NCBI GenBank assembly: GCA_041569895.1
Contig: JBFFXF010000001.1
Coordinates: forward strand, 1,043 to 65,042
From: Planctomycetota bacterium
Lineage (GTDB): Bacteria > Planctomycetota > UBA8108 > JACQVS01
Length of the DNA stretch: 64,000 bases
Direction of reading: 5' to 3'
Shown: one piece after another, positions 17,226 to 61,230 of the stretch
How the letters are laid out: each line of letters begins with the position of its first letter
Numbering within the stretch: the stretch's first letter is position 1
Notes under the pieces: model-generated
The model's input: the letters and a program-made list of their open reading frames with translations, nothing else
What the model was told of the DNA's origin: nothing
Databases searched by the model: none
Position numbers and translations under genes: made by a program

Positions 17226-17500
17226 GCCCGCGGATACGGTTGGCGAGACGGAGGACGGAGACGGAGCACAGAGACCAGAGGACAGAGACCAGAACCCGCG
17301 GGTCGGAATCGGTCATCGGAATCGGAATCGGCGTCGGCATCGGACATCGGACATCGGAGTCGGTTCTCTGATATCGGCCTCGGTCATCGGCCTCGAACTC
17401 CCCCTACCCGGCCCGGACGTCGGCCACCACAGCGACTCCGAGAGTCTTCGGGCACGGGCACGGGCACGGGCACGGGCACGGGGACGGGGACGGTACGCCC
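17226..17500. repeat. composite intergenic hexamer-repeat element: GA-rich module, (GGAATC/GGACAT)n and (GGGCAC)n arrays
   Basis: Direct reading. Fills the convergent spacer between the PHP gene and the Kazal gene. Confidence 0.75.
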
Positions 17501-19384
17501 CTACGGACACTCCCCCTCCCCCGCGATGCTGACGCCCTGTGAGGCCGCGACGCAGGCGTTCGAGTAGGTGCGGCCGTCGCACCCGCAGACCGGATCGAAG
17601 ACGGCCGGGCAGATGCCCGGGCGTTCCCGGCACGTGCCGCGCGCGTCGCACTGGCCGGGCTCCTTGGCGCAGACCTGATCGGCGTTGCAGTCGCGATTGT
17701 CGGCGCAGCCGCCCGGCTCGTCGCACGGGCCCCTCGACGCGACGCTGGCGCCTGCCGCGAACGCCAGACAGGCGTTCGAGTAGGTCCTGCCGTCGCAGCC
17801 GCAGACCGGATCGAGGATGCGCGGACACGCGAGCGGTCGGGGCTCGCACGCGCCGGCGACGTCGCACTCGCCGTCGGGACGCCGGCAGAGGAACCCCTCG
17901 CCGCACTCGGCGTTTGCACGGCACTTCCGTGGCGCTTCACATTCGCCCTCGTGGAGGATGCTGACGCCGGCCGAGGCCGCGTTGCACGCGTTGCCGTACG
18001 TCCTGCCGTCACAGCCGCAGACCGGGTCGAAGAGCGCGATGCAGATCTCCGGTCGGGGCGCGCAGTCGCCCGGAGCGCCGCACCGTCCGGGCGGCCGCGA
18101 GCAGAAGGAGCCCGCGCCGCACTCCTCGTTCGTCGTGCAGCCGTCGACCGGCTCGCACTCGCCGCGGCTCGCCACGTTGACGCCGGCCGCGGCGGCCTCG
18201 CACGCGTTGCCGTAGGTCTCGCCGTCGCATCCGCAGACGGGATCGAAGACGTCGGGACACGCCACCGGAATTTCCGAGCAGGCTCCCGGGCCGGCGCAGT
18301 CTCCGGGCTCGCGTTGACAGTACCGGCCGCGAGGGCAGTCGATGTTCGTCTTGCACTCGACGTCGGCGCACTGCCCGCCGTGCAGGACGTTGACACCGAC
18401 CGAGGCCGCCTCGCACTCGTTTCCGTACGTCCTGCCGTCGCACCCGCACACCGGGTCGAAGATCTCGGGACAGCCGAGGGGACGCACGGCGCACTCCCCG
18501 GCCGCGTCGCATTCGCCCGGCGCCCTCTTGCAGTACTGGGCGCGATCGCACTCGCCGTTGTCGACGCATCGTTCGGTCGGCTCGCACGGCCCGGGCCGGA
18601 GGACGCTGACGCCGGCGCGCGCCGCCTCGCAGCGGTTGCCGTAGGTCACGCCGTCGCAGCCGCAGACCGGATCGAAGATCAGCGGACATATGCCCGGCAC
18701 TGCCTGGCAGATCCCCTCGCCGTCGCAGTCGCCGTCGGACCGCGCGCACCAGAGGCCCTTGGCGCATTCCGCGTTCGACGCGCACGCTTCCTGGCCGCAC
18801 TCGCCCTCGCTGGCCACGTTGACGCCGGCCGCGGCAGCCTCGCACGCGTTGCCGTACGTCTTTCCGTCGCAGCCGCAGACCGGATCGAAGATGCGCGGAC
18901 ACGCCTGCGGTCGCTCGCGGCAGGAGCCGACGCCCTCGCAGTCGCCGGTCGCCTTCGCGCAGAAGAAGCCCTCGGGACAGCAGTCGTTCGTGTCGCAGCC
19001 CTCGTCGCACCGTGGGTAGCTGACGCAATCGAGCCGGTCGGGGGTCGGGTCCGGACCGCAGCGATCGGGTCCGGGCGCGGGAGGCGGCGGTCCGCCTCCG
19101 AAGAGGAAGGTGAAGATATAGATCGGGTCGCTGAGGTCGAGCCCGCCGGTGTCGTTGGAGTCGGCGGCGTCGCGGCACGTCGGCTCCTTGCCGCCGAGGA
19201 AGAGGAATCCGAGGATCATCACGCCGTCGGAGAGATCGAGAACGGCGTCGACGTTGGCGTCACCTCGGCGGAAGCCGCAGTCGGCCGCGACCCGCGGCGG
19301 GACCACGGCGCAAATCAGAACGGCGACGACCGCGGTGACCGCGACCACGCGCGGGACCGGGAAAGAGCGACGGCTTTTGGACAT
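17501..19384 (-). CDS. secreted multi-Kazal serine protease inhibitor-like protein (7 Kazal domains) with N-terminal dockerin-like EF-hand pair
   Basis: Signal peptide ([28 protein letters not shown]). Dockerin-like [24 protein letters not shown] and [24 protein letters not shown]. Seven repeats of [27 protein letters not shown]. ATG at 19382-19384. Confidence 0.8.
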
Positions 19385-19745
19385 GGCGGTAGCGTCCTCC
19401 CTCGCACCGGTGTACGGCGCCCTGAACGCGCCGAGTGCACGCGCAGCGCGCGCCCGGCAGCGTTCTCGGCCTGCGGCAAACAGGACCCACCCAGAAGGAC
19501 CTTGAAGAGCGAGTATACCAGAACGTAGCATGACGTGAACGGATTTCGTCCAAGGCCGCCGTTTCGGGCCCGGTCGGTCCGCACGGATCGACGCGCACGG
19601 CAAGGCTCGGGCCACGTTCGGAAAAAAGAGTGGCACGTTCGAGTGGCCGGAGCCGATAGACGTGCTGATGCGGGGGCCCGCTCCCCCGATTCGGAGCATC
19701 GGTTCTCGGAATTCATCAGGACAGAGACGCTCGGGAATTCGAACC

Positions 19746-21173
19746 ATGGCAGCGCATAGATCAAAGAAGGCGGCTCCGATTCGCTTTCTCTTCGAGAACT
19801 CCCTCTTTCTCATCGTCGGCGCCGTCGCCGGGCTTGTCTGGGCGAACTACGATCCGGAGAGCTACGACGCGTTCAAGCACCTCGAGATCTGGCCGTTCGA
19901 GGAGACCGTCGAACAGGTCGGCGGAGGCGCCGTCGAGGATGGCGGCGAGGTCGCGGCGGTCCCGGGGGAGCCGGTCGCGGTCGATGCGGGTGTCGCCGCC
20001 GAGGGCGCGGTCGCCGCGGCTGCGGGAGCCGTGGGCGGTCAGGGAACGCAGAAACACGACCACAACACGCTCCTCTTCCTGATCAACGACATCCTGATGG
20101 CGCTCTTCTTCGCCATCGCCGCCAAGGAGGTCTGGGAGGCCTTGCTTCCCGGCGGGGCGCTGTCGAGCCGGCGAAAGGCCGCGACACCGCTGATGGCGAC
20201 GCTCGGCGGCATGGTCGGTCCGGCGGGGCTCTTCCTGCTGGGCGTCTGGATCTTCAAAGCGCCCGAGCTGTCTCGCGGGTGGGCGATCCCCTGCGCCACG
20301 GACATCGCATTCAGCTACATGATCGCGCGGCTGATCTTCGGCGCCGGCCACCCGGCGATCGCCTTCCTCCTCCTGCTCGCCATCGCCGACGACGCCGCGG
20401 GTCTGATGATCCTCGCCGCCTTCTACCCGCAAGCCGAGCCGGCTCCGATGTGGCTGCTGGTGACGGTCGGGGCGGTGGTCCTCGGCTTCGTGCTCCGCAA
20501 GTTCCGCCTGCAGAGCTTCTGGTGGTACCTGCTGATCCCCGGCGTCCTCAGCTGGTACTCCATGCTCAAGGCGGGGCTTCACCCGGCGCTCGGGCTGGTG
20601 CCGATCATCCCGACGATGCCCCACGCGCACACCGACCTGGGCGTGTTCGCGCGCGAGGAGCTCAACCGCGACGACACGCTGAACGCCTTCGAGCACTGGT
20701 GGAAGAACCCGGTGGAGCTCATCCTCGGGCTCTTCGGTCTGGTCAACGCGGGCGTCGTCTTCTCGAACGTCGGGCTGGCGACGTGGCTCGTGCTCGTCGG
20801 TCTCCTGGTCGGCAAGCCCCTCGGCGTCGCCGTCTTCACGTGGATCGGCCAGAAGATGTTCCGCCTGGAGATACCCAACGGCATGGGCTACCGCGAGGTG
20901 ATCACCATCGGCATGATCGCCGGTATCGGGTTCACCGTCGCGCTCTTCGTGGCGACAGCGGCATTCCCGCCGGGCACCGCGCTCGACGCGGCGAAGATGG
21001 GCGCCCTGGCGAGCTTCTTCGCAGCCGTGCTCGCGTACGTCTTCGCGCGCGCCGTCGGCATCCGGCGGACGCAGTCGCAGTCGTCGCGCACGGCGCCGCC
21101 ACCGCCGCAGGCCAGCGAGCCGATGGACGACACCGGCGAGCCGCAGAACGCGGAAGAGGAAGTCACCGCGTGA
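19746..21173 (+). CDS. nhaA: Na+/H+ antiporter NhaA
   Basis: NhaA TM2-like [28 protein letters not shown] and [22 protein letters not shown] motifs. Carries an unusual Gly/Ala-rich insertion of about 60 aa near the N-terminus. Confidence 0.85.
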
Positions 21174-23211: not shown

Positions 23212-24261
23212 TCAAACTCCGATTTGCGCCCCGGCGCCTGGCGGGGACAGTCGCGCGGCGATCTCGTCCGCGGTTGCCGTCCCGGTGGTGCCGAGCTTGT
23301 GGATGACGACCGCCGCCGCCGCCACCGCGATGCGCAGGGCCTGTTCGAGCGTCGCTCCGCTGGCGAGCATGGCGGTCAGATGCGCAGTGACGGCGTCCCC
23401 GGCTCCGACGATGTCGATCTCGCCGCGCACCGGCTCGGCGAGCACGTGATGGGCGGCGCCCCCGGGCGTCGCGCCGACGATACCATCGGCTGCCAGCGTG
23501 ACCACGCCGGGACGGCCGATGCGTCGCACGACGCCCGCGAGGCGCTCCGCCACGCGCTCGATCGCGGGATCGTCGCCGAGTCCCTGCCAGGCCGTGAACT
23601 CGGCGCGGTTCATCTTGAATCCGACCGGCGGGAAGTGCGCCAGGCCGCGACGGCTGTCGGCGATCATGAACACGTCGGGCCGCTGCGCGGCGACCTCGTC
23701 GACCGTGGCGAGCACGCCGTCCGTGAAGACACCGGTGCCCGCGACGTCGACCTGCTCGAGGAAGATCAGCGCGTCCACCTCGCCGGCCCCGAGCGATCGC
23801 AGCGACTCGCAGAGCCGCTCGGTGACCCCGGGCGGCGTCGGCGACCAGTTCTTGATGTCGATGCGCTCGAGCTCGCGCGGCGGGCGACCCGCCTCCATCA
23901 CGAGCGGCTTGGTGTACGTGAACGTCCGGCGCTCCCCGGTCCTGAAAAAATGGTCGAGCCGCACGCCCGGAAGCGCCTCGAGCGCGCGGACCAGCTCCCA
24001 GCCCTCGCCGTCCTCGCCGGCGAAGCCGACCGGCAGCAGCGTGCCGACACCGAGCGCGGCGAGGTTGGTGAGAATGGTGCCGGCGCCGCCGGGCTGGCAG
24101 CGAACCGAGACCACGTTGCGGACCGGCAGGCCGGTCTCGAGAGAGTCCTCTCGGCGATCCGGGTCGATCTCGAAGTAGCGGTCGAGGCAGTAGTCGCCGG
24201 CGACGGCCACGCGCAGCCCGCCGAGGCGGGAAGCGAGCTGACGGTACGTTTCAGGGTTCAT
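23212..24261 (-). CDS. PfkB-family carbohydrate kinase (RfaE/HldE domain I-like heptose-7-phosphate kinase candidate)
   Basis: GGAGTILTNLAALG and DIVGAGDAVTAHL (DxxGAGD) motifs. Divergent from gmhA. Confidence 0.7.
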   Translation of the reverse strand: MNPETYRQLASRLGGLRVAVAGDYCLDRYFEIDPDRREDSLETGLPVRNVVSVRCQPGGAGTILTNLAALGVGTLLPVGFAGEDGEGWELVRALEALPGVRLDHFFRTGERRTFTYTKPLVMEAGRPPRELERIDIKNWSPTPPGVTERLCESLRSLGAGEVDALIFLEQVDVAGTGVFTDGVLATVDEVAAQRPDVFMIADSRRGLAHFPPVGFKMNRAEFTAWQGLGDDPAIERVAERLAGVVRRIGRPGVVTLAADGIVGATPGGAAHHVLAEPVRGEIDIVGAGDAVTAHLTAMLASGATLEQALRIAVAAAAVVIHKLGTTGTATADEIAARLSPPGAGAQIGV

Positions 24262-24400
24262 GAAGCGCTCCAGGAGCCGTGTTCGGGCGGCATTCGCCGC
24301 CCCGCCCTGTTATAGTTCGCTCCGTCGCCGGGATCGACCCCCCGCTCGGAGATCTCCGGGCGAGATGCCGGCCGCACGCTCGGCTGCACGGAGAGACGTC

Positions 24401-25048
24401 ATGGCCAGAAAAGCCACGAAGAGAGAGACGAAGGGAGCCGCGTCGCGCTTCGACGCAGATTCCGCGGGCCGCTGGGTCGAGGACTACATCGACGCCCACA
24501 AGCGAGCGCTCGACTCGATCCCCAGGCAGCAAGTCACGGCGCTCCTGGAGGAGCTGCAGGCCGCCCTCCGCGAGGACCGCGGCATCTTCGTGTTCGGCAA
24601 CGGCGGCAGCGCCGCCAACGCCTCGCACTTCATCACCGATCTCGGCAAGGGCGCGTCGGACGTGACCGAGCCCGCCGGCGCGGGCCGCTTCCGCTGCCTG
24701 TCGCTCAACGACAACGTCAGCTGGATGACCGCGATCGGCAACGACTACGCCTACCAGGACATCTTTCGCCGCCAGCTCGAGAACTTCGCCCGCCCCGGCG
24801 ACATCGCCATGACGCTGAGCGTCAGCGGCAGCTCCCCGAACGTCGTCGAGGCGATCACGTGGGCCCGCGAGCACGGCCTCAGGACCATCGCGCTCGTCGG
24901 CGGCAAGAAGGGAAAGCTCGCCGAGGTTGCCGAGGAGGTGATCGTCATCGACGACCGCCACTACGGCCGCGTCGAGGATGTCCAGATGACGATCTGCCAC
25001 ATGCTCTGCTACGCGTTCATGGAAGGAGCGGTGCCGCCGCCGGCGTGA
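24401..25048 (+). CDS. gmhA: phosphoheptose isomerase (SIS domain)
   Basis: GNGGSAANASHFITDL and SVSGSS motifs, about 215 aa. Confidence 0.85.
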   Translation: MARKATKRETKGAASRFDADSAGRWVEDYIDAHKRALDSIPRQQVTALLEELQAALREDRGIFVFGNGGSAANASHFITDLGKGASDVTEPAGAGRFRCLSLNDNVSWMTAIGNDYAYQDIFRRQLENFARPGDIAMTLSVSGSSPNVVEAITWAREHGLRTIALVGGKKGKLAEVAEEVIVIDDRHYGRVEDVQMTICHMLCYAFMEGAVPPPA

Positions 25049-25412: not shown

Positions 25413-27017
25413 CTAAAAGCGCTGCAGGCGCCGGAAGCGGGGTCGTTCCGCCGCGTTCGCGACCATCCACGTCGTGTCCGCCACCGCGTGGACGATGCGC
25501 TGCATCATGTCGAGCGTCAGTTTCTCGACGTCGTCGCCCGGCTGGTGGTAGTCTCCCTCGTCGTCGGAGTGGAAGACGAGGACGGGGATCTCCCGCGCGA
25601 AGAAGGGGAAGTGGTCGCTTCTCGCGTTGACACGCGAGCCGGCGAAGTTTGGCTCGGCGATTCCAGCGCGCTCCAGGGCGAGGCGCGCCGATCGGTCGAG
25701 GACGTGGCAGTAGAACCCACCCATCGCCAGGACGGTGTTCCTGGTCGAGCGCCCGACCATGTCCATGTTGATCATCGCCACCGTCTGGTCGAGCGGCACC
25801 AGCGGGTGCTCGACGTAGTAGCGTGATCCGAGGAGGCCCTTCTCCTCCGCGTTGAACGCGATGAAGAGCACGCTCCGGCGCGGACGTACCGGCTGGTGAA
25901 CGAACGCGCCGGCGATCTCGAGGAGCGCCGCGGTGCCGCTCGCGTTGTCGTTGGCGCCGTTCATCACCTCGCCGCCGCGGATGCCCTCGTGGTCGAGGTG
26001 CGCCCCGATGACCACCCACTCGTCGCGCACCGCCGGGTCGGCGCCGCGCAGCGCCGCCGCGACGTTCCAGGTCGGCAGCGTCTCGCGCCGGCGATCGAGC
26101 CCGAGCGTCACCTGCACGCCGGTGGCGCGTGAGCGCGGCTGGCGGGACGCATCGATCTCGCGCTGGAGGGCCTCGAGGTCGATCGCTCGCGAGACCTGCT
26201 CGACGAGCCGCTTGCCGGCGAAGACGAAGGGGATGCCCGGGCCGCCGTCGTCATCGGGCCGATCGCCGTCGCCGTTCGCCCCGCCGGCGAGCCCGGAGAT
26301 CGCCCGCCCGCCGCTCGAGCCGAAGTGGCGCTGCCCGCCGCAGTGGATCGGATCGTTGACCAGCACGAGGCCGGCGGCGCCGTGTCGGATGGCGTTCTCG
26401 AGCTTGGTGTCGAAGCGAGCGTGCCGGGTGTGGGTCCTCCCCTCGAACCACGACTCGCGTTCCCGCTCGCGCGGCTCGTGACGCAGGACGAGGACGACCT
26501 TGCCCTTGATGTCGATGCCGTCGTAGTCGTCGTAGTCGTGCTCGGGGGCCGTGATGCCGTAGCCGCAGAAGACGAGCTCCGACGTTGCGCGCCCGCCGCC
26601 GCTCCACGGAAAGATCGCGAAGTCCGGTCCCGGTCGGAGAGGCTGGCCGTCGACCTCGAGGCTGACGTTCTCGAACGCGGTCGCCGCGAGCCGGAACGGT
26701 TGAAAGAAGCGGCGGGGACCGGTGGCGCCGTCCGGCGTCGACCCGACCGGCTCGAGTCCGAGTTGCTCGAAGTGCGACGCGATGTAGAGCGTCGCGAGCT
26801 CGTTCCCGCGCGAGGCCGAGTCGCGCCCCTCGAGCTGATCGCTGGCGAGGAAGCGGACGTGCGCGAGCAGGCGCCGCTGTGTGATGCGAGCGGGATCGAG
26901 AACGGCTGCCGCGTCCGCCACCGCAAGCGGCGACGGGCTCCCGGCGAACGCCAGTGGCTGGAGCAGCGCGACGGCGATCGGAATGACCGTCACCGCCAGC
27001 GCGCGCCGCGTCAGCAC
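25413..27017 (-). CDS. M28-family aminopeptidase with PA domain, secreted
   Basis: GANDNASG, FNAEEKGLLGS and DHFPF motifs. GTG start at 27015-27017 gives signal peptide LTRRALAVTVIPIAVALLQPLAFAG and sits 1 nt after the upstream stop. Confidence 0.75.
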   Translation of the reverse strand: MLTRRALAVTVIPIAVALLQPLAFAGSPSPLAVADAAAVLDPARITQRRLLAHVRFLASDQLEGRDSASRGNELATLYIASHFEQLGLEPVGSTPDGATGPRRFFQPFRLAATAFENVSLEVDGQPLRPGPDFAIFPWSGGGRATSELVFCGYGITAPEHDYDDYDGIDIKGKVVLVLRHEPRERERESWFEGRTHTRHARFDTKLENAIRHGAAGLVLVNDPIHCGGQRHFGSSGGRAISGLAGGANGDGDRPDDDGGPGIPFVFAGKRLVEQVSRAIDLEALQREIDASRQPRSRATGVQVTLGLDRRRETLPTWNVAAALRGADPAVRDEWVVIGAHLDHEGIRGGEVMNGANDNASGTAALLEIAGAFVHQPVRPRRSVLFIAFNAEEKGLLGSRYYVEHPLVPLDQTVAMINMDMVGRSTRNTVLAMGGFYCHVLDRSARLALERAGIAEPNFAGSRVNARSDHFPFFAREIPVLVFHSDDEGDYHQPGDDVEKLTLDMMQRIVHAVADTTWMVANAAERPRFRRLQRF

Positions 27018-27018
27018 G

Positions 27019-28602
27019 TCAACACTCCGGGAGCCCGTCCGGCGTCGGATCGAGACCGGCTTCCGGGAACGGCTCCGGCATCGGCGGTCCACCCTGGAAG
27101 AGGAAGTTCAGGATGTAGACGCCGTCGGAGAGGTCCGTGTTGCCGTCGTCGTTGGCATCGAGGGAGTCGCGGCACGGAGACGCGGCCGGCTGGCCGAGGA
27201 ACAGGTCGTTGAAGACGGAGACGCCGTCGGAGAGGTCGACGTTGCCGCTGTTGTTGGTGTCGCCGCGAATGAAAGGCGTCCCCGCGGGGTAGCAGAAACC
27301 CCTGTCGTCGAAGTCACAGCCCGCGTCGGTGCACACCTCGACGCGCACGCAACCCCCCGCGTCACACTCGGGGGCGGTCACGAGGAGCTGTGACCCCCCG
27401 CCGCCGAGCTCCGCGGGCACGACGACACCGCACACGCGGACGACGAGGTTCGGGGCGTCGGTGAAGTTGCGGCCGATGATGAAGAACGTCGATCCGGCCT
27501 CACCCTCGTTGTTGACGAAGGAGTCGATGACCGGGACGCCCGGCGGCTCGGGATAGGTGAAGCCGTCGGGATCCGTCACGCAGCCGAAATCGTTGCAGAC
27601 CTCGACCCCGGCGGGGCCCGGACCGCAGTCGGGCGCGGTCACCTGGATCGTCTGCGGGTTCGGCACGTTGAAGGTCGCCTCGGCGCCGAAGACCCGGACG
27701 GTGGTCCCCGGCTTGTCGAAGTTCTCGCCGACGACGATGAACACCGTTCCCGGCGGGCCGCTGTTGTTGATGTACTGGTCCTCGAAGATCACCGGCGCGT
27801 TCGACGGGTACTCGAACCCCTCGGGCTCGACGGTGCAGCCGAAGTCGTTGCAGACCTCGATGCGCGCCTTGCCAGGAGTGCACTCTGGAGCCGTCACCTG
27901 GAGGTTCTCGTCATCGATCACGATGAACTCCGCCGGCTTGTTGCAGACCGAGACGCGCAATCCCGGCTGTTCGAAGTTCTCGCCGACGATGAAGAAGATC
28001 GTTCCCGGATCGCCGCGGTTCTGGGCGAAGTCGGTCAGCTTCGGCCGCGGATCGATGATGGTGAGGTCTCCATCCTCGAGATTCGGGGGCGGCGAGAAGG
28101 AGTTCCCGTCGGAGTCGGTCATGACGTTCGTCCGCACGGGGCTGACGTTCGTCCGGTTGACGAGGTTGAGCACGGTCTCCGTGGCAGTCGAGGAACGCAC
28201 GTCGATGACGAGTCGCAGGAGCTCGAGATCGGATCCCGGCTCGAGGTGCCGATCCGCGGTCGCCTGCGACGTGCTGAAGACGACGCCCCAGACCACGCGG
28301 CCGGCGCTGTCGTCGATGGTCCCGTCGGCCCATTCGGGGGACAGGCCGGCGACGGCGTCGCCGAGCTGGACCTCCTTGATCCGGATCTTCGTGCGCTCGT
28401 ACTCGATGGAGATCGAGAATCCGTAGAGGTCCTCGTCGACATCCGCGCGGATCGAGATGACCTGGTTCGCCGCGTTGATCGGCAGCCTCGCGTCCTCGAT
28501 GGAGAAGCGATTCACCGCCTGGAGGTCCGTTCCCGTGGTCAGGATGACGACAAGGAGAAGCACGCCGAGGAGCGCGCCCGTGTGCGACTGTCGAAAGCTC
28601 AT
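27019..28602 (-). CDS. secreted protein with four IPT/TIG-like repeats and C-terminal dockerin-like EF-hand pair
   Basis: Signal peptide. Repeated ~90-aa units (GTIFFIVGENF...VTAPECxPG...VEVCNDFGC). C-terminal GDTNNSGNVDLSDGVSVFNDLFLG and DANDDGNTDLSDGVYILNFLFQGG. Confidence 0.7.
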   Translation of the reverse strand: MSFRQSHTGALLGVLLLVVILTTGTDLQAVNRFSIEDARLPINAANQVISIRADVDEDLYGFSISIEYERTKIRIKEVQLGDAVAGLSPEWADGTIDDSAGRVVWGVVFSTSQATADRHLEPGSDLELLRLVIDVRSSTATETVLNLVNRTNVSPVRTNVMTDSDGNSFSPPPNLEDGDLTIIDPRPKLTDFAQNRGDPGTIFFIVGENFEQPGLRVSVCNKPAEFIVIDDENLQVTAPECTPGKARIEVCNDFGCTVEPEGFEYPSNAPVIFEDQYINNSGPPGTVFIVVGENFDKPGTTVRVFGAEATFNVPNPQTIQVTAPDCGPGPAGVEVCNDFGCVTDPDGFTYPEPPGVPVIDSFVNNEGEAGSTFFIIGRNFTDAPNLVVRVCGVVVPAELGGGGSQLLVTAPECDAGGCVRVEVCTDAGCDFDDRGFCYPAGTPFIRGDTNNSGNVDLSDGVSVFNDLFLGQPAASPCRDSLDANDDGNTDLSDGVYILNFLFQGGPPMPEPFPEAGLDPTPDGLPEC

Positions 28603-28744
28603 ATTTGACTCTGCAGTCCTGTTTTCCACGCTGGAAGAGGATCCCGGACGGCTCTGGCCGACCAGCCACGTCGAGCGCCCGGGTACCGTGAGCCGGGACC
28701 CACCCCACCCCAATCCGCAGATTATCTCACAGCTCGCGGGCGGC

Positions 28745-28835: not shown

Positions 28836-28851
28836 GACCGCGTCCGTGTGT

Positions 28852-29973
28852 TCAGCTCTCGCCCAGGCGGTCCGGATTGAGGCCGGCGAGGTCGTCGGTG
28901 ACGAAGATCCCGTCCCTGCGGATCGGCTCGCCGTCGAAACGGATCTCGCCGCCGCCGTACTCGGGTCGCTGGATCGTCACCAGGTCCCAGTGGATCTCGG
29001 AGCGGTTGCCGTTGTCGGCCTCCTCGTACGCCTGGCCGGGAGTGAAGTGGAACGAGCCGGCGATCTTCTCGTCGAAGAGGATGTCGAGCATCGGCGTCAG
29101 GATGCGCGGGTTGAATGCGATCGAGAACTCGCCGACGTACCGCGCTCCCTCGTCCGAGTCGAGGATCTCCTCGATGCGCTTCTGGGGCCTCGCCGAGACG
29201 TTGACGACGCGGCCGCGCTCGAACTCGAGGACGATGTTCTCGAAGACGACCCCGTGGTACGGGCTCGGGGTGTTCACCGAGAGCTTCCCCTCGACCGAAT
29301 CGCGCACCGGCGCGGTGAACACCTCGCCGTCCGGGATGTTCTGGGTTCCGGCGCAGCCGATCGCCGGGATGCCCTCGATCGAGAAACGGAGATCGGTGCC
29401 GGGACCGATGATGTGCACTTCGCGCGTCTTCTCCATGCGCTCCACCAGCGGCTCCATCGCCCGCGCCATGGCGACGTAGTCGAGCGTCGACACGTCGAAG
29501 AAGAAGTCCTCGAACGCCTCCGTCGATTGCCGCGCGAGCTGCGCCATCGAGGGGTTCGGCCAGCGCAGCACGACCCATTTCGTCTTCGGCACGCGGATCT
29601 CGCTGTGCACTCTCTTCCAGAGCGTGCGCTGGAAGATCGCCAGACGTTCCTGGGGGATGTCGGAGTGCTCCGAGATGTTGCTCGAGCCGCGGACGCCGAT
29701 GTAGGCCTGCACGTTCTCCATCTGGAGCTTCTCGACCTCGGCCCAGAGCTCCATCTGCTCCGCGCTCGCGTTCAGGTAGAGCTCGCGAAGAACACGGTTG
29801 TGCTTCGTCATGCAGAGGGGCACGCCGCCGGCCTCGACGACCGCGCGGATGAGAACGACGAGGAACTCCTCCGGGATGTCGTAGGCCTCGATGAGCACCT
29901 TCTCGTCGGGGTTGATCTTGGTCGAGTGGCCGACCAGAATGTCGGCGAGTTTCCTGTAGCGTGGATCGAACAC
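28852..29973 (-). CDS. M29-family aminopeptidase (AmpS/PepS-like)
   Basis: About 370 aa with typical M29 length and conserved acidic/His positions. GTG start chosen at VFDPRYRKLADILV; a longer ATG start at 30084 is possible. Confidence 0.65.
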   Translation of the reverse strand: MFDPRYRKLADILVGHSTKINPDEKVLIEAYDIPEEFLVVLIRAVVEAGGVPLCMTKHNRVLRELYLNASAEQMELWAEVEKLQMENVQAYIGVRGSSNISEHSDIPQERLAIFQRTLWKRVHSEIRVPKTKWVVLRWPNPSMAQLARQSTEAFEDFFFDVSTLDYVAMARAMEPLVERMEKTREVHIIGPGTDLRFSIEGIPAIGCAGTQNIPDGEVFTAPVRDSVEGKLSVNTPSPYHGVVFENIVLEFERGRVVNVSARPQKRIEEILDSDEGARYVGEFSIAFNPRILTPMLDILFDEKIAGSFHFTPGQAYEEADNGNRSEIHWDLVTIQRPEYGGGEIRFDGEPIRRDGIFVTDDLAGLNPDRLGES

Positions 29974-30115
29974 AGACCGTCTCCCTTCGCTGATCGAGGC
30001 CTCAGTCCGGCCGTCTCGGTCGTCGAGATCGTTGGTCGCGGGTTCCGGAGAATGTACCCGGAACGGTTCACGACCTGAATCCAAAACCTGATTCCCGGCT
30101 CCCGGGTCGCGCGTC

Positions 30116-32447: not shown

Positions 32448-32774
32448 TCAGCGCGTGAGCTTCCAGAGCACGGCCTGGACGTGGTCGATCCGCTGCTGTG
32501 CCTCCCTGACCTGCCGCTCGGCGATATACCCCCACGCCATGGCGACACGCAGAGCCGTCCGCACCTCCTCGGCGCTCCCCGAGGCGACGCGCCAGAGGTG
32601 AAGCCGATCCCCACCCGCGCGCCGGTTCCCCTCGCCGAGATTGAGCGCAACGGACGACGCCGCATCCCGAATCTGCGTCGCCAGCCGCGAATCGCGACGA
32701 CGAATCGACATCACCAACGGACGCAACGAACGAACAGCAGCCAGAGCGATCTCGAGAGCCTCGAAGGGTTTCAT
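32448..32774 (-). CDS. four-helix-bundle protein (TIGR02436 family, the type often found in 23S rRNA intervening sequences)
   Basis: About 108 aa, MKPFEALEIALAA...QIRDAASSVALNLGEG. Confidence 0.55.
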   Translation of the reverse strand: MKPFEALEIALAAVRSLRPLVMSIRRRDSRLATQIRDAASSVALNLGEGNRRAGGDRLHLWRVASGSAEEVRTALRVAMAWGYIAERQVREAQQRIDHVQAVLWKLTR

Positions 32775-39480: not shown

Positions 39481-39583
39481 GCTTCCCGATCCCACCCTCT
39501 GGCCGTCGAGTGTATCATAGACCCTCTTGTTTCGACTCTCCCGCGTGAAGAGAGGCCGGCGCACCCATCACGGAGTTCCTCGC

Positions 39584-43904: not shown

Positions 43905-44164
43905 TCTGTTTTTCCAAACCCGCCGTCGTCGGTCGGGTTTCTCCTGTCCTGTCTCCCCTTGATGTCTCTCTCGCGTCGTTTTTTTTTCTCGCTCGCTCGT
44001 GATGAGAGACGTCGGAGAGCCCCATCCTTTCACAGGAAACCGCCGATTTTTCGCGGAAGGCCGGGGACGGACCACGTAAGTCCTTTGTCCAGGCCAGCCG
44101 GGGCGAAACCGGGAGACGCCGCTCGTTACAACGCCGTGACGGAAACGCGACGGTCGGCGGCGTC

Positions 44165-45319
44165 TCAGCCGACCGGGAAGCCGGTGTGGTGGGACATCCA
44201 GGCGGCGAGCCGCCGGATTCGGGTGGCGCTCCGGTCGCGGAAGAGAGTCTCGCGCCGGCCGCGCGTATCGTGGACCTGGAGCAGGTGGAGGATGCGCGGT
44301 GCGCGTCCCCGCGCGAAACGCGACGCGCGGTGCAGGACGATTCGCCCGTCCTCGAAGGTGCGTCGTATGCGCGTGCCGGGCGAGGAGACGAGCACCTCGA
44401 GCCGCCCCGGTGTCAGCCGATATCGCGTGCGGCTGAAGCACGAGACGACGAGCACGCCCGCGAGCACGAGGCCGACGAGGATCGACGGTGACAGGAAGAC
44501 CCACGTGCTCCAGTTCGCGGCGTCGAGGAGCGGCTGTCCGTCCGCGATGGGGTCCGGCGCGGCGCCGTGTCCGATGACCGCCACGAGGATGAGCCCGGCG
44601 AGCGCCGCGTTCCAGGCGAAGGTGACCGCGAGGAGCGAGAGGTTGCGTCGCAGGCGACCGAGCGGATCGAGCTCGACCGTCAGACCGTCGAGGTCGAAGA
44701 GCGCGACGAAGCCGCGTGGCGTCTCGTTGGCCGATGGACGGATCGACGCGTCCGCCTCATCGACGTGCGGCAACGCCTGGCGACCGAGCGCCCGCGAAAG
44801 GAGCTTGCGGAGCTTCGCGCGACCGGCTCGCGACGCCGCCGAGCCGATCGCCAGGGCGCCGCTGCCGAGCTGGATCCACAGCCGCTGTCGAGTCAGCGTC
44901 ACGCCGCGGATGGCGCGAGGTTCGATGACGCGCGAGCGGGCGAAGAACGCGACGCTCCGCCGGATCACCCAGCGGTCGCGCCGCACGTCGATGGTCTCGA
45001 CGAGGAACGCCCATCGCAGGAAGGAGATCAGCGCGACGACTCCACACGCGCTCCACACGAAGAGGAGCACCGTCGCGCAGGCGATCGCCGTGGCGCGCCA
45101 GTCCGCGCCGAGGCGCGACGCGCGCAGCAGCAGCTCGACGCCGGAGCACGACACGAGCACCCACAGCAGGGCGACGACGCTGACCGACGCGGCTGTCTCG
45201 ACGGTGGGCAACGGACGCGGCCCGATCGTCACCGTCACGCCGGATCCGTCACGCCGGACCCGCAGGGCGCCCCGCACCGCCCCGTTTCTCCCTGCCTTGC
45301 TTCGCGGAGCGTGACTCAT
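44165..45319 (-). CDS. hypothetical integral membrane protein
   Basis: Multiple hydrophobic helices. No family recognised. Confidence 0.5.
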   Translation of the reverse strand: MSHAPRSKAGRNGAVRGALRVRRDGSGVTVTIGPRPLPTVETAASVSVVALLWVLVSCSGVELLLRASRLGADWRATAIACATVLLFVWSACGVVALISFLRWAFLVETIDVRRDRWVIRRSVAFFARSRVIEPRAIRGVTLTRQRLWIQLGSGALAIGSAASRAGRAKLRKLLSRALGRQALPHVDEADASIRPSANETPRGFVALFDLDGLTVELDPLGRLRRNLSLLAVTFAWNAALAGLILVAVIGHGAAPDPIADGQPLLDAANWSTWVFLSPSILVGLVLAGVLVVSCFSRTRYRLTPGRLEVLVSSPGTRIRRTFEDGRIVLHRASRFARGRAPRILHLLQVHDTRGRRETLFRDRSATRIRRLAAWMSHHTGFPVG

Positions 45320-45356: not shown

Positions 45357-46379
45357 TCAACGAAATTCGCCGCCCGCATCGCCGCTCGCGTCCCCCTTCA
45401 TACCGCCCCGCAGGTGCTGCAACGCGCGGGTGAAGTCATCGGGAAGGGGACACGTGAAGTGGCGCGGCTCGTCCCAGTGGGGCGGCAGGGTGTATCGATG
45501 CGCGTGGAGCGTCAGCCGTTCGATGCCGCGCACGGACGTCGGCGCGCGCGCCATCGGACCGACGCGGTACAGGGGATCGACGGCAAGGGGGTGACCGATC
45601 GCCCACGCGTGGACGCGGATCTGATGCGTGCGGCCCGTGAGCGGCAGCGCCCGAACCAGCGTCGCTCTCTCGAAACGCTCGACCACCTCGAAGACGGTGA
45701 CCGCATCCCGAGCCGTCTTGCCCGGCTTGCCGCCCGTCGCCGGCTCCGCGCGCATGCGGCCCTTGCGACCGGGACCGATCGGGCAGTCGATGGTCACGCG
45801 AGCCGGCTCGACGACGCCCTCGACGATCGCGAGGTACTCCTTCTCGATGCGCCGGTGCTCGAAGTCATCGCCGAGTCGGCGCTCCACCTCCGGCGTCAGC
45901 GCGACGATCACCAGTCCGCTCGTCAACCGGTCGATGCGGTGGACGATTCGCGGGCGCACGAAGCGCTCGGGGGGCTTGTCGCGCCGTGCCGCGAGCTCCC
46001 TCCGGATGACCAGCTCCAGACAGCTCGCGATCGCCCGGTCCCGATCGGGCACCACCGGCACGCCCGCGGGCTTGCCGAGCACGACGAGACGTGCGTCCTC
46101 GTGGAGGATGTCGATCTCCCCGGACGCGTCGTCGTTCTCGCTGCCGGCCTCGATCAGCATCGACGGCGTGTCCTCGATCGGTCGCCGGAGCACGAGCGCG
46201 TCGAGGTCGCCGACACGCTCGTCACCCGACAGCGCCCGCTCGCCGCTCCGCACGTCGCCGCGCTCGAGCACCTGCGCGATGGTGCGGCGAGACCGATCGG
46301 GCCAGAGGAGGGCGAGGTAGTCGATGAGGGGGAGGTCGTTGAAGGCGCGGTGGATGGGTACTGATAAGTCGGCGCGCAC
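45357..46379 (-). CDS. RluA-family 23S rRNA pseudouridine synthase
   Basis: VHRIDRLTSGLV catalytic Asp motif, S4-like N-terminus. GTG start at 46377-46379, placed just downstream of a hexamer array that the longer ORF reads through. Confidence 0.75.
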   Translation of the reverse strand: MRADLSVPIHRAFNDLPLIDYLALLWPDRSRRTIAQVLERGDVRSGERALSGDERVGDLDALVLRRPIEDTPSMLIEAGSENDDASGEIDILHEDARLVVLGKPAGVPVVPDRDRAIASCLELVIRRELAARRDKPPERFVRPRIVHRIDRLTSGLVIVALTPEVERRLGDDFEHRRIEKEYLAIVEGVVEPARVTIDCPIGPGRKGRMRAEPATGGKPGKTARDAVTVFEVVERFERATLVRALPLTGRTHQIRVHAWAIGHPLAVDPLYRVGPMARAPTSVRGIERLTLHAHRYTLPPHWDEPRHFTCPLPDDFTRALQHLRGGMKGDASGDAGGEFR

Positions 46380-46676: not shown

Positions 46677-47333
46677 CTATCCCACCAAACTCCGCATCGC
46701 ACCCGCATCGAGCTCTTCCAGTGACTCGACGATGCGATGCGCGCCGCTCAGGTCGGCGGCGGGGCGGGTCGAGGTCACGGCGATCACCCGGCAGCCGGCG
46801 CGGATGCCCGCCTCGACGCCCTGCGGGGCGTCCTCGATGACGATGCACCGCGCCGGAGGCAGCTCGAGCTTTCGCGAGGCGATGAGGAAGACCTCCGGAT
46901 CGGGCTTGCCGTGCGTCACCTCGTCGCCCGTCGACAGCGCCGTGAAGTGGTCCGAGACGCCGAGGATGCCGAGGACCAGGCGGACGTTCGCGGCGGGCCC
47001 GGAGGATCCGACGGCGAGTCGAGTCCCGGCGCGTGACAGCGACTCGATGAGCGCGACGGCGCCCGGCAGGGGCTCGAGCAACGACGCCGCCTCCTCGCGA
47101 TAGATCGCCTCCTTCTCCGATGACAGCTCCGCGACGCGTTCCGGCGGGAGGTCATCGCCGAGCCAGATCGGGATGATCTGATTGTTGTGCATCCCGAAGG
47201 TGCGATCGAAGAGCTCGCGAGGGCACGGGGTCCCGATGCGCTCGCCGAGACGGCTCCAGGCGACGAAGTGTGCCTCGGTCGAGTCCACGAGCACACCGTC
47301 CATGTCGAAGATGACACCGGTCGAGTCGGGCAT
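46677..47333 (-). CDS. HAD-superfamily hydrolase (beta-phosphoglucomutase-like subfamily IA)
   Basis: FDMDGVLVDS motif I, GSSG motif II, K...EDAPQG motifs III/IV. Confidence 0.8.
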   Translation of the reverse strand: MPDSTGVIFDMDGVLVDSTEAHFVAWSRLGERIGTPCPRELFDRTFGMHNNQIIPIWLGDDLPPERVAELSSEKEAIYREEAASLLEPLPGAVALIESLSRAGTRLAVGSSGPAANVRLVLGILGVSDHFTALSTGDEVTHGKPDPEVFLIASRKLELPPARCIVIEDAPQGVEAGIRAGCRVIAVTSTRPAADLSGAHRIVESLEELDAGAMRSLVG

Positions 47334-58156: not shown

Positions 58157-59458
58157 ATGAATCACCCTGCACCGGACCGCACGACGACGCGACGCGACTT
58201 CCTGCAGCGGGGCCTGGCGGCGGGCGCCCTGGTCGCCGCCCCGGCTCTCCTTCGCGGTGGACCGCCTCCCTCGGAGCGGGTGCGGGTCGGGCACATCGGG
58301 CTCGGCGGACGCGGCAGCTCGCTCCTGGCGCAGTCCCTGAAGACCTCCGACGTCGATGTCCTCGCGGTGTGCGATGTCGATCGGAGCCACCTCGACCGCG
58401 CCGTCGCCAGCGTCGGCAAGGGCGCGGCGGCGACCACCGACTACCGGAGGGTGCTCGATCGCGGCGACATCGACGCGGTGATCGTCGCCACCCCCGACCA
58501 CTGGCACGCCCTCGTCACGATCCAGGCGTGCGCCGCCGGCAAGGACGTCTACGTCGAGAAGCCCCTCTGCACCTTCGTGGCGGAGGGACGCCAGATGGTC
58601 GACGTTGCGCGCAAGCACGGTCGCATGGTGCAGGTCGGCATCAACCATCGCTCCGCGGAGTACATTCGCGAGATCGTCGAGATCATCCGCTCCGGCCGCA
58701 TCGGCAAGGTCTCCGAGGTGAAGACCTGGATGTGGGAGAATCGGTTCAAGAAGCGGACCGCGCCCTCGGCGCCTCCGGCGCACCTCGATTACGATCGCTG
58801 GCTCGGCCCGGCTCCGCGCGTGCCGTACCACCCCGACCGCGTCCACTTCAACTTCCGCTGGTGTCTCGACTACGCCGGCGGCTACATGACCGACTGGGGC
58901 GTCCACATGATGAACGTCGTGACGTTCGCGATGGACGTCGATCACAAGGGGCCGAAATCCGTCCGGGCGACCGGCCGTCCCTACGACGACAACCTCTACG
59001 ACTTCCCGCGCACCATGGAGGCGCGCTGGGAGTTCGAGGACCCCGGCTTCACGCTGACGTGGACGCAACCGGCGACCGGTGGCGACGTCCTCCCGGGAGA
59101 GCGCTACGGCATGACGTTCTACGGCGAGGCGGGGCAGCTGCGGACGAAGTTCGGCGGGCACGCCTTCTGGGTCGACGGCAAGGAGGCGCCGCTGCCCGAG
59201 CCGGCGCGCACCGTCGACGTGCCGCGCAGTCCGGGGCACTTCCGCGACTGGCTCGACTCGATCCGGTCACGAGAGCTGCCGATCGCCGACGTCGAGATCG
59301 GCCACCGCACGACCGCGCTCTGCGTCCTCGGAAACATCGCGCTCTTCACCGGTCGTCCCCTCGAGTGGGACTGGAAGCGCGAGCGTTTCATCGACGACCG
59401 TCACGCCGACGCGATGCTGGGTCGCGACGACCGCGAGCCGTACCGGCGCCCCTCGTGA
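58157..59458 (+). CDS. Gfo/Idh/MocA-family NAD(P)-dependent oxidoreductase, Tat-secreted
   Basis: Twin-arginine signal TRRDFLQRGLAAGA. Rossmann VGHIGLGGRG and EKP motifs. Confidence 0.85.
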   Translation: MNHPAPDRTTTRRDFLQRGLAAGALVAAPALLRGGPPPSERVRVGHIGLGGRGSSLLAQSLKTSDVDVLAVCDVDRSHLDRAVASVGKGAAATTDYRRVLDRGDIDAVIVATPDHWHALVTIQACAAGKDVYVEKPLCTFVAEGRQMVDVARKHGRMVQVGINHRSAEYIREIVEIIRSGRIGKVSEVKTWMWENRFKKRTAPSAPPAHLDYDRWLGPAPRVPYHPDRVHFNFRWCLDYAGGYMTDWGVHMMNVVTFAMDVDHKGPKSVRATGRPYDDNLYDFPRTMEARWEFEDPGFTLTWTQPATGGDVLPGERYGMTFYGEAGQLRTKFGGHAFWVDGKEAPLPEPARTVDVPRSPGHFRDWLDSIRSRELPIADVEIGHRTTALCVLGNIALFTGRPLEWDWKRERFIDDRHADAMLGRDDREPYRRPS

Positions 59459-60792
59459 TCCGCCAGGCGGCGAGCGTCGTCCTCTGGCGCGACCGCGGCG
59501 CTCTCGAGGTGTTTCTCGTCGAGCGCGCCCGGCGTCTGGCCTTCTTCGGCGGCTACCACGCATTCCCCGGCGGCGCCATCGAGCCGGGTGATGTCGACCT
59601 GCAAGCGTGCGCCGTGCGCGAGGTACGCGAGGAGACCGGCGTGCGACTCGATCCCGCCGCGCTGCGACCGATCACGCGTCTGGTCACGCCGTGCTTCTCG
59701 CGAGTGCGCTTCGACACGCGCTTCTTCCTCGCGAGGACCGACCGCGAGCCACGAGTCACCGGCGGCGAGCTCGCCGCGGGAGCGTGGCGAAGACCCGCCG
59801 ACGTGATGGCCGCCTGGCGTCGCGGCGACCTGTTGCTCGCGCCGCCGGCGATCGCCGTCCTGCGCGAGCTCGAGCGCGCCGGGGACGACCTCGACACGGC
59901 GGTCGACGCGCTCTCGGCGCTGCCGCCCGAGTACGAGGGCTCGGGTCTGGCGATCCCCTGGACCGCGGGCTACGAGCTCCTCCCGCTGCGCTGCGAGCCG
60001 CTGCCGCCCGAGCTGCCGATGAGCACGATGCTCGTCGGCTGGAACCGCTTCATCGTCATCGACCCTGGAACGCAGGGAGCCGCCGAGCGCGAGCACCTCA
60101 TCGAGGCGGTGGGCCGCCGCATCGACTCGGACGACCGTCTCGAGGCCATCGTCCTGACCCATCACCACGTCGACCATGTCGCCGCGCTCGACCCGCTCCT
60201 CGAGCGGTTCCCCGCGCCGGTCTGGGCCCACCGGATCACCGGCGAGCTGCTCTCTCTCGCGCTCGATCGCGAGCTCGACGACGGCGACCGCATCGAGCTC
60301 GGCGACGACCCGGCTGGCGAGCCGGGATGGGAGCTCGAGTGCGTCTTCACGCCGGGACACGCCGCCGGTCACCCGGCGCTGCACGACCCGAGACATCGCG
60401 CGCTCGTCGCCGGTGACCTCGTCTCGACCGCCGTGAGCATGTACGTCGGCTCGCCGGGCGGGCATCTCGGCACCTACTTCGAGTCGCTCGAACGCATCCG
60501 CGCGCTCGACGCGGCGATCCTCTATCCGTCACACGGCATGCCGACGATCAGCGCCCGCCAGCTGATCGATCGCACCATCAAACATCGCAAGGCGCGCCTC
60601 GACGAGATCGAGCGCCTGGTCGCGGAGCGGGGGGAGATCGACGTCCCGACCGTGGCGGCGACGGTGTACCAGGACGTCCCGCCGCGGTTCGAGGACTTTT
60701 ACCATCGGGCCGCGAGAGCGTCGCTCGAGTATCTGGTCGAGACGGGGAGGGTCGTCGCAGCAGGTGCCGACCGCTTCAGGCCGACAGACTGA
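59455..60792 (+). CDS. Nudix hydrolase fused to MBL-fold metallo-hydrolase
   Basis: Nudix box GGAIEPGDVDLQACAVREVREETG. THHHVDHV beta-lactamase-fold motif plus downstream His/Asp. GTG start overlapping the upstream TGA (GTGA). Confidence 0.7.
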   Translation: MIRQAASVVLWRDRGALEVFLVERARRLAFFGGYHAFPGGAIEPGDVDLQACAVREVREETGVRLDPAALRPITRLVTPCFSRVRFDTRFFLARTDREPRVTGGELAAGAWRRPADVMAAWRRGDLLLAPPAIAVLRELERAGDDLDTAVDALSALPPEYEGSGLAIPWTAGYELLPLRCEPLPPELPMSTMLVGWNRFIVIDPGTQGAAEREHLIEAVGRRIDSDDRLEAIVLTHHHVDHVAALDPLLERFPAPVWAHRITGELLSLALDRELDDGDRIELGDDPAGEPGWELECVFTPGHAAGHPALHDPRHRALVAGDLVSTAVSMYVGSPGGHLGTYFESLERIRALDAAILYPSHGMPTISARQLIDRTIKHRKARLDEIERLVAERGEIDVPTVAATVYQDVPPRFEDFYHRAARASLEYLVETGRVVAAGADRFRPTD

Positions 60793-60829
60793 CCGCGGTT
60801 CCCTGGGCTGTCCTCGGTGTGCTCGTGCC

Positions 60830-61230
60830 ATCGTTTCAAAAACGTACCCGTACCCGTACCCGTTCCCGTTCCCGTTCCCGTCCCCGTGCCCGCGCCCGTC
60901 CCCGTGCCCGCGCCCGTGCCCGTGCCCGTTCCCGTCCTCGAGGGCTCTGGTATCGGAGTCCGATGACCGACTCCGATACCGATGGCCGATACCGATACCG
61001 ATTCCGAGGACAGAGATCAGAGTCCGTTGATGGAGACCGCGCTCGAGACAGACGCGCTGACCGCTTCTTGCTTCAATCTGCGTAATCTGCGTTCCCGTCC
61101 CCGTCGGACTTCGGCCGCGCCTTCGAGACCGAGGATGAGACCGAGGACGAGGACGAGGACGAGGACGAAAGAAAACGGAGCGAGCTGGCAAATGCCGGCT
61201 CGCTCCGTGGTCTCGCAACGATCGCCCTTA
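60830..61230. repeat. composite intergenic hexamer-repeat element: (CCCGTN)n, (CCGATN)n, GAGGACAGAGATCAGAG module, TTCAATCTGCGTAATCTGCGTTCCC core, (GAGGAC)n
   Basis: Direct reading. Convergent spacer between the Nudix-MBL gene and the large secreted protein gene. Confidence 0.8.

Follow-up and report, generated by a model that had tools for sequence, protein, structure and literature searches.

Strings of degenerate hexamer arrays form a dispersed modular repeat family behind genes of a Planctomycetota bacterium

Many intergenic spacers in a 64,000-nucleotide (nt) stretch of the genome of a Planctomycetota bacterium (GenBank assembly GCA_041569895.1, contig JBFFXF010000001.1; hereafter the window) contain arrays of degenerate hexamers, mainly (CCCGTN)n and (CCGAYN)n. 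What are these arrays? A sequence-only reading of the window had offered three roles, namely terminators or insulators, protein-binding arrays, or a selfish microsatellite-like element, and all three are still live candidates. The family itself is real, far beyond chance, and it is an undescribed family of the interspersed mosaic intergenic repeat kind. Our preferred reading, to which we give a probability of about 0.4, is that a mosaic repeat resembling the bacterial interspersed mosaic elements (BIMEs) and BOX elements has been co-opted, or at least tolerated, as tracts on which the termination factor Rho loads, between or behind genes.

Tandem Repeats Finder (TRF), together with regular-expression and pattern scans of the window, recovered period-6 arrays of the two kinds at every locus where they had been reported, although the one at 47395-47465 is weak, with about four degenerate units. 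In this sequence of 68.7% G+C, the pattern CCCGNNCCCGNNCCCG, equivalent to (CCCGNN)3, matched 57 times against 0.15 ± 0.36 expected from dinucleotide shuffles, and CCGAYNCCGAYNCCGA, equivalent to (CCGAYN)3, matched 26 times against 0.02. Two exact copies of the 16-nt core TTCAATCTGCGTAATC lie at 46633 and 61072, and a third, with three mismatches, lies on the minus strand at 25254-25269, which makes three in the window against 0.18 expected. Arrays account for about 2% of the window, or 20.2 array bases per kb. They are not assembly artefacts, since independent assemblies are identical at two loci: contig JBFIRG010000307.1 (GCA_041609175.1), which comes from the same organism at 99.8% identity, and a Logan contig (SRR29257483) both show zero differences from the window over 46365-46676 and 47334-47534. 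We found no description of this array family in the literature searched. A 2025 survey reported an enrichment of 6-9-nt tandem repeats in prokaryotic phyla, and a weak one beside genes (PMC12699852).

The modules were named A, (CCCGTN)n; j, a unique junction of about 40 nt after A; B, (NCCGAY)n; C, purine-rich (CAGAGAN/GAGACN)n; D, the core TTCAATCTGCGTAATC..ATCTGCGTTCCCGT; and E, (GAGGAC)n. A full copy reads A-j-B-C-D, often with E joined (Table 1). Modules E and j, a C-type 7-mer array and an F element of about 170 nt, described below, come in addition to those listed earlier. The common order A-B-C-D claimed for two loci was recovered, as A-j-B-C-D on the plus strand at 46390-46666 and 60843-61105. 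The locus at 25049-25412 had been described as a reverse complement of this order, which is correct for B-C-D and incorrect for A: the layout is A (plus strand), then D, C and B (minus strand), then E (plus strand). At 17226-17500, module C is inverted as reported, the minus strand of 17245-17496 reading A-j-B and then the inverted C. A multiple alignment joined B-C-D at three loci, and junction j aligned across 17405-17448, 46441-46480 and 60937-60959, where it is also found as an inverted repeat pair. The (CTCTGAT)10 array at 32983-33054, tied by a direct-repeat family to 25295-25327, reads as an expanded C module.

Because the copies have unique-sequence modules in common, they did not arise by independent slippage; since the order of these modules is shared as well, they descend from one another by some copy-and-paste or recombination process. 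The loci are thus copies of one dispersed modular element, and the modular assembly suggested earlier is supported by the shared unique modules. Inside the arrays, positions 1-5 of the A unit are near invariant, with variation concentrated at position 6, and identical units occur in runs within otherwise degenerate arrays (e.g. four CCCGGT, seven CCCGTG). Such runs, and variation of this kind at position 6, are typical of replication slippage with occasional point mutation, by which each array lengthens and shortens once it has landed.

Where do the copies lie? Automatic gene calls based on G+C content at third codon positions (GC3) were corrected with Pfam/NCBIfam and by reading the sequence. 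An apparent plus-strand gene at 45414..46364 was rejected as a shadow open reading frame (ORF); the real gene is a minus-strand PseudoU_synth_2 gene at 45357..46379 (Pfam; NCBI start), and the element at 46390-46666 therefore lies between two minus-strand genes, antisense to both. Four large convergent spacers are filled by the element, as had been stated: 17226-17500 (between 16065..17225(+) and 17501..19813(-)), 25049-25412, 42602-42917 and 60793-61238. The element is not specific to convergent spacers, since copies also occur in same-strand spacers (28714-28851, 32775-33066, 46380-46676 and 47334-47534), in one divergent spacer (39187-39526) and inside a gene. What the arrays mark is spacers containing gene 3' ends. 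On the curated map, arrays or array-bearing elements are present in all nine spacers of at least 100 bp that hold a gene 3' end, against one of five divergent spacers (Fisher p ~0.005, calculated by hand). Array A starts 7, 8, 22 and 51 nt past stop codons in sense orientation, and E, as (GTCCTC)n, starts 16 and 71 nt past stops.

Just past stop codons, the arrays are usually C-rich in the sense strand. In the six convergent spacers, the stop-proximal tract is C- or pyrimidine-rich in the sense of the gene at 10 of 12 stops, and the base skew flips sign in mid-spacer at 25049-25412 and 60793-61238. A metagenome scan with (CCCGTN)5 returned 120 mixed loci (G+C 0.30-0.76, some coding, some eukaryote-like), which were used only to count orientation: on unrelated contigs, seven arrays were C-rich just past the end of a coding-like ORF and three had the opposite sense (symmetric count). 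The breadth of these hits was considered as a sign of a special motif and rejected, as control hexamers saturate a viral scan likewise.

In RNA folds, C-rich arrays reach a minimum free energy of only -0.07 to -0.21 per nt, against about -0.4 to -0.5 for whole spacers, and A and B arrays in the C-rich sense are no more stable than their shuffles (z -0.6 to +2.9). For the 142-nt tract past the gene for an SIS-domain protein (25049-25190), the centroid is wholly unpaired. Each A unit has three C to one G, and many arrays show a 12-nt superperiod; as modelled, the tracts have the properties of Rho utilization (rut) sites, i.e. at least 60-80 nt of weakly structured RNA with more C than G. RNA that is C-rich, G-poor and unstructured is the textbook loading site of Rho. 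On the DNA side, A arrays provide 9 of the 11 predicted G-quadruplex (G4) motifs of the window (at least four G3 runs, 1-7 nt apart), and at six of the eight intergenic A-array motifs the neighbouring gene has the G-rich strand as its template. Among the modules, only A yields such motifs.

Consensus scans found no hairpin/U-tract terminators in the arrays and none above shuffles at these gene ends. The single canonical terminator at these loci, at 61176-61207, indicates that the organism can use such terminators. The role of bidirectional terminator proposed earlier was not borne out, the arrays being without hairpin character (z ~0). No conserved RNA structure was detected in C-D, and Rfam 15 gave no gathering-score hit in the window or the related loci, only two chance-level hits with E<1, both outside arrays. 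A search for tRNA and tmRNA found none.

Comparison with known systems places the family near, but outside, several of them. It is not CRISPR, as had been said, since its units of 6-7 nt run head to tail with no spacers (TRF), and it is not a repetitive extragenic palindromic (REP) sequence, BIME or miniature inverted-repeat transposable element (MITE) in the strict sense, in agreement with the earlier reading, its units being non-palindromic and no terminal inverted repeats (TIRs) or target-site duplications (TSDs) having been found for it. With REP/BIME it shares an extragenic location concentrated at gene 3' ends, in convergent or same-strand spacers, a mosaic of motifs in variable combinations and orientations, many copies per genome, and lineage specificity. 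It differs from them in that a REP unit is an imperfect palindrome of about 35 nt (20-40 nt) in alternating orientation, whereas here arrays of 6-7-nt units are found and no REP-associated tyrosine transposase (RAYT) is seen in the 64-kb window. REP/BIME have been linked to Rho-dependent attenuation, protection of mRNA 3' ends and binding of gyrase and IHF. The BOX elements of Streptococcus pneumoniae (boxA-boxB(n)-boxC) likewise combine a fixed module order with a variable tandem internal module in intergenic positions; their modules are 45-59 nt long with stable folds, unlike the hexamers, several array types per element and weak predicted structure seen here. Known rut sites are similar in being C-rich, G-poor, unstructured RNA with C residues spaced 6 and 12 nt apart, here over about 60-140 nt right after the stop, but they are neither tandem arrays nor dispersed repeats, and here the orientation is not consistently sense. 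MITEs, enterobacterial repetitive intergenic consensus (ERIC) sequences and Correia elements are also short, non-autonomous, dispersed and co-transcribed with flanking genes, and the long spacer-filling palindrome at 12631-13072 recalls them; A-B-C-D has a microsatellite-like body for which no TIR or TSD was found, however, and 12631-13072 consists of two copies rather than of TIRs. The contingency loci of Neisseria, Haemophilus and Campylobacter are slippage-prone, and one array of the window differs by one unit between strains. Contingency loci are nonetheless perfect 1-7-nt units in ORFs or promoters that switch expression, while these arrays are degenerate and mostly downstream, with two loci invariant. 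Finally, (GGGNAC)n fits the rule of four G3 runs with 1-7-nt loops that defines G-quadruplex/i-motif repeats, but this holds for module A only, and the composite has other arrays.

The Rho-loading reading would unfold as follows. Copies would survive in spacers with a gene 3' end, where they would be transcribed as 3' untranslated region (UTR). In the orientation most often seen beside a stop, they would yield a stretch of 60-140 nt of RNA that is rich in C, poor in G and free of structure, has C residues at intervals of 6 and 12 nt, and could be loaded by Rho. Genes that converge or adjoin would thereby be separated by a factor-dependent terminator or insulator. A G-quadruplex roadblock formed by the G3N3 repeats of the template strand could contribute as well. 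In a genome of 69% G+C, such unstructured RNA would otherwise be rare, and canonical hairpin/U-tract terminators are presumably scarce.

Several results weigh against a Rho-loading role. The count of nine spacers out of nine is partly circular, as the arrays themselves make the spacers large. Same-strand spacers offer the only real test of orientation, and there the outcome is four to four. In sense are A at 28770, C at 46597 and two tracts of the relative's locus L120, an A array and (GTCTCN)n; the antisense ones are the A and B arrays of 46390-46600, the 47405 remnant and (CTCTGAT)n at 32983. The orientation samples are all small, with a combined p of ~0.1, which is suggestive. One copy lies on the promoter side of divergent genes (39297-39420) and one in a coding region. 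Neither rho, nor a transposase, nor a RAYT gene is found within the 64-kb window, and alignments of three or four copies revealed neither TIR nor TSD where A-j-B-C-D begins and ends; at the empty site of the closest relative, the flanks have diverged too far to show target duplication. That relative carries arrays at only one of about five comparable spacers, its spacer between the Kazal and hydrolase genes being 21 bp long and array-free against 275 bp in the window, and more distant relatives manage without arrays.

An alternative nearly as likely as Rho loading is a selfish or neutral microsatellite- or minisatellite-like family that would spread by recombination or by some transposition function acting in trans, slip, and persist only where it is harmless (behind genes, in disordered linkers) with no host function. 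In the protein collection searched, the organism is represented only by the fragmented assembly GCA_041609175.1, and exact look-ups of two proteins of the window gave no match. The best other hits to the Tex protein of the window are 63-69% identical, the named ones being from Thermoanaerobaculia (Acidobacteriota). The closest relative found comes from JGI metagenome 3300037422; its loci L120 and L244 are syntenic with the window and about 71-82% identical in coding DNA. Because array density falls from 20.2 bases per kb in the window to 8.9 and 1.8 at the two loci of this relative and to 0 in five more distant relatives, the family is a lineage-specific expansion. Such a burst would suit a selfish family, as would the lack of arrays at most orthologous spacers of the relative, the even split of orientations in same-strand spacers, the coexistence of many unit types, and a C-D part with neither conserved structure nor an Rfam family. 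The relative has a dispersed hairpin of its own, (CACGGAGA)3-5 ... (TCTCCGTG)n with unrelated loops (L120 277-445 and L244 7977-8190); one copy immediately precedes a GxxExxY (TIGR04256) gene, and the other is isolated.

The in-frame copy points the same way. In the gene with FHA and M64 peptidase domains, all ten Val codons of the A-B composite are GTA or GTT, codons that make up 4.8% (1.2% + 3.6%) of Val codons in the genes of the window, and the copy is therefore a DNA-level element tolerated in a linker rather than one shaped by translation. When homologues of this gene were searched to see whether the array is an insertion, a single FHA-domain hit was obtained. A unit-length difference between strains at another array, at 15453-15538, would likewise suit a selfish family; it is the sole indel over the 10.6 kb compared. 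The array has a 15-nt unit, ATGCATCGCGTCYTG, in 5.7 copies at the 5' end of tex, which differs by one unit from GCA_041609175.1 as the sole indel in 4.1 kb; NCBI starts tex downstream of it, so that it is either N-terminal coding sequence or 5' UTR.

Other evidence speaks against a selfish family without function. In the relative, the SIS ortholog is followed, from 11 nt past its stop, by an A array of similar length (89 nt, L120 13612-13700) and then by (GTCTCN)17, even though coding DNA there is only about 75-80% identical. Arrays begin within 7-22 nt of stop codons, and 10 of 12 tracts on convergent sides are in sense; a selfish origin would explain the latter by selection against G-rich non-template strands prone to R-loops or G4. 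Useless DNA is normally lost from bacterial genomes, yet arrays take up about 2% of the window. Lastly, the length comparison between strains that the earlier reading had called for showed A/B arrays of the same length in the spacers 46380-46676 and 47334-47534 (S8 and S9), both invariant at 99.8% identity despite 12 single-nucleotide polymorphisms in the flanking genes, numbers too small for significance.

It is rather unlikely that the element is a mobile, self-spreading terminator cassette, in which copies behind stop codons would provide a length-tunable Rho platform, with hexamers in 6/12-nt register with the Rho hexamer and a G4 backing on the template strand, or that the arrays are docking sites for an unknown ring- or filament-forming nucleic-acid-binding protein. 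We consider it clearly less probable than the Rho-loading and selfish readings that the arrays serve through DNA structure or protein binding, the YCCG(T/A) hexamers forming G4/i-motifs or binding an oligomeric nucleoid protein or gyrase in 6-bp register and thereby organising supercoiling or blocking polymerases between transcription units, as proposed for BIMEs. Such a role would fit the near-invariant positions 1-5 and free position 6 of the A unit, the share of G4 motifs contributed by A arrays, and, being strand-independent, the occurrence of both orientations and of a promoter-side copy; a variant in which a TRAP- or CsrA-like RNA-binding protein recognises the purine-rich strands, with their GAG every 6-7 nt and their AGGA-rich E and F modules, would fit the AGGA every 6-8 nt in E and F. 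Against it, no candidate for the binding protein emerged, three-tetrad G4s cannot arise from B, C or E arrays, and the arrays are absent from relatives. That the arrays are low-complexity coding remnants, i.e. (PV)n, (DS/DT)n and (ED)n tails or linkers of pseudogenes or cut-off C-terminal extensions, is already close to refuted. Array periods of two codons, continuation of A in a Pro-Val frame past the stops at 25048, 60792 and 17501 and one translated A-B copy would suit it. Against it, the arrays depart from the genome in their codon usage, the frame is a different one at 28852 and in L120 (agreement of three in five is not significant), periods of 7, 8 and 13 nt are also present, and the arrays are accompanied by unique non-coding modules, namely j, C and D. 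In both lineages the SIS protein has MLCYAF-EG as its conserved C-terminal motif, and its ORF does not include the array; this conserved stop and the non-host Val codons argue against a coding remnant.

Table 1 Modules of the repeat family and associated features in the window.
Feature	Position	Strand	Context and evidence
F element, two inverted copies	12631-13072		Fill convergent spacer from stop codon to stop codon
C, purine-rich (GAGACNG/CAGAGAC) array	17245-17293	+	TRF periods 6/7/13/14
B, (NCCGAY)n	17302-17390	-	In sense of Kazal-domain gene; TRF, regular expression, pattern scan
Junction j, unique sequence after A	17405-17448	-	Alignment
A, (CCCGTN)8	17447-17496	-	5-8 nt past stop (17501-17503) of minus-strand Kazal gene; Pfam Kazal
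A, about 20 units	25055-25180	+	7 nt past stop of SIS-domain gene 24260..25048(+)
Core D, degenerate, CTCAATCTGCGTCAGCTGCGTTCCCGTTCC on minus strand	25240-25269	-
C, GGAGGACAGAGATCCGAGACCGA on minus strand	25290-25312	-	Alignment
B	25313-25369	-	In sense of M28 peptidase gene 25413..27092(-); Pfam
E, (GAGGAC)3.7	25376-25397	+	TRF 100% match; (GTCCTC)n in M28 sense, 16 nt past M28 stop
A alone	28770-28830	-	22 nt past stop of M29 peptidase gene 28852..30084(-), upstream of TIG gene; both flanking genes minus
C-type 7-mer array, (CTCTGAT)10 on plus strand	32983-33054	-	TRF; beside four-helix-bundle gene 32448..32774(-)
E, reverse-complemented, (CTCGTC)4.7 on plus strand	39216-39243	-	TRF; 5' region of SBP_bac_5 gene
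B, about 20 units, 12-nt superperiod	39297-39420	+	Only copy in divergent (promoter-side) spacer
In-frame A-B composite (A 40068-40136, B 40134-40209)	40068-40209	+	Inside FHA/M64 peptidase gene 39527..42601; (VP)11(DT)12
B	42672-42744	+	70 nt past stop of plus-strand gene (42601)
D-like remnant GGAATGCGTTCCCGTACCCG and third F-element copy	42745-42917	+	CCCG-rich end of F abuts stop of kinase gene 42918..44504(-)
A (CCCGGN-type)	46390-46443	+	11-64 nt upstream of minus-strand pseudouridine synthase start; antisense (G-rich) in that mRNA
Junction j	46441-46520	+	Alignment
B	46521-46600	+	TRF, regular expression, pattern scan
C (GAGATCAGAGGCAGAGAACAGAGACCGAG) and core D (46633-46666)	46597-46666	+	End of D 10 nt from stop of HAD hydrolase gene 46677..47333(-)
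A remnant, about 4 degenerate units	47405-47431	+	Spacer between two minus-strand genes; G-quadruplex motif scan
A, 15.5 units	60843-60937	+	51 nt past stop (60792) of NUDIX/metallo-beta-lactamase gene; Pfam
j (60937-60959), B (60959-61009), C (61006-61023), D with A-like tail (61072-61105)	60937-61105	+
E, (GAGGAC)6.5	61124-61168	+	TRF; (GTCCTC)n in sense of minus-strand gene
Canonical intrinsic terminator of gene 61239..63887(-), outside the repeat family	61176-61207	-	Hairpin then UUUUCUUUCG; fold -40.2 kcal/mol, z -4.1

The F element carries (AGGAAGGC)n and ends in CCCGTGCCCGAAAGG. Its three copies have 71% column identity in the alignment, and an inverted pair involving 42745-42917 is 85% identical over 48 nt. 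Between the WD40-kinase gene and tex, 12631-13072 folds as one rod-like hairpin of about 440 nt (-219.8 kcal/mol, z -9.0); in the NCBI assembly of this organism, the short-read contig breaks within this hairpin. In the RNA folds, long-range pairing of array arms was found only there, and not at 32390-33072 or 42745-42920.

Other repeat-built hairpins came to light during these searches. A scan of a genome collection with the 16-mer core gave at least 119 hits, mostly chance matches, as the pattern is too short. Among 123 hits to this core, 57 are followed by a further unit, where 1.6% would be expected, and 41 have one in inverted orientation no more than 120 nt away, against an expected 2.9%. 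Copies of the core D 9-mer, (AATCTGYGK)n, are spread over Planctomycetota, Acidobacteriota, Chloroflexota, Bacteroidota and other phyla, and their loci are often long hairpins with arms made of the 9-mer and its complement (e.g. L029 1340-1440, L007, L021, L055 and L083). No Rfam match was obtained for these hairpins, and (AATCTGYGK)n looks like an undescribed, very widespread repeat-armed hairpin. At three loci of unrelated bacteria (L208, L235 and L238), (CCCGTG)n or (CCCGTT)n is paired with inverted (CACGGG)n or (AACGGG)n 15-40 nt away. These hairpins with repeat-built stems hint at slippage in stems of terminator type as a possible source of arrays with a single arm.

The 32448-32774(-) gene encodes a four-helix-bundle protein of TIGR02436, the family of 23S rRNA intervening sequence (IVS) proteins. 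It lies alone in a convergent spacer, flanked by a short (NNCGGG)4 tract and the (CTCTGAT)10 array, like an inserted cassette. From this gene and L120 513..887 we considered whether arrays are flanks of IVS-like elements with four-helix-bundle or GxxExxY genes; a search of all fetched loci with phmmer and motif scans yielded just four more such ORFs, and this was rejected as a general explanation.

Some observations concern the genes themselves. The minus-strand gene at 17501-19813, like its counterpart at L244 1-1591 in the relative, encodes a secreted-type protein of about 7-10 tandem Kazal domains with a 216-nt DNA period, a multi-Kazal architecture that is, to our knowledge, unusual for bacteria. 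The SBP_bac_5 gene probably starts at a GTG at ~39186, judging from its translation, in which an RGRGRG stretch lies upstream of the signal/transmembrane segment. An 807-aa ORF at 58369..60792 is partly a shadow of 58157..59458, and the true start of the NUDIX and metallo-beta-lactamase gene is probably near 59455. Two plus-strand ORFs, 5494..6570 and 5682..8633, overlap in different frames and are both coding-like by GC3, which suggests a frameshift or sequencing error in one long gene (5494-8633); the same gene holds a near-perfect in-frame array of 15 nt x 6.9 at 6732-6834.

Known interspersed intergenic repeats (REP/BIME, BOX, ERIC and MITEs) come mainly from a few cultured phyla and have palindromic units. 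The family described here is new in that it comes from an uncultured soil-type bacterium of an Acidobacteriota-like lineage and is built of degenerate microsatellite arrays strung together instead of palindromes. In practical terms, such repeats break short-read assemblies, as in the NCBI metagenome-assembled genome GCA_041609175.1, with 4-5-kb contigs that end in them, and spurious long ORFs are called across arrays. If the Rho-loading reading is true, the element would be a natural, modular and tunable factor-dependent terminator, and a handle on termination in high-G+C bacteria, where classical terminators are lacking; were it also a self-spreading terminator cassette, the lineage would have rewired termination and insulation genome-wide with a repeat family. 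If the family is instead selfish, microsatellite-like DNA would be able to proliferate as a dispersed bacterial family and to be taken up in frame by proteins, as (VP)n(DT)n linkers.

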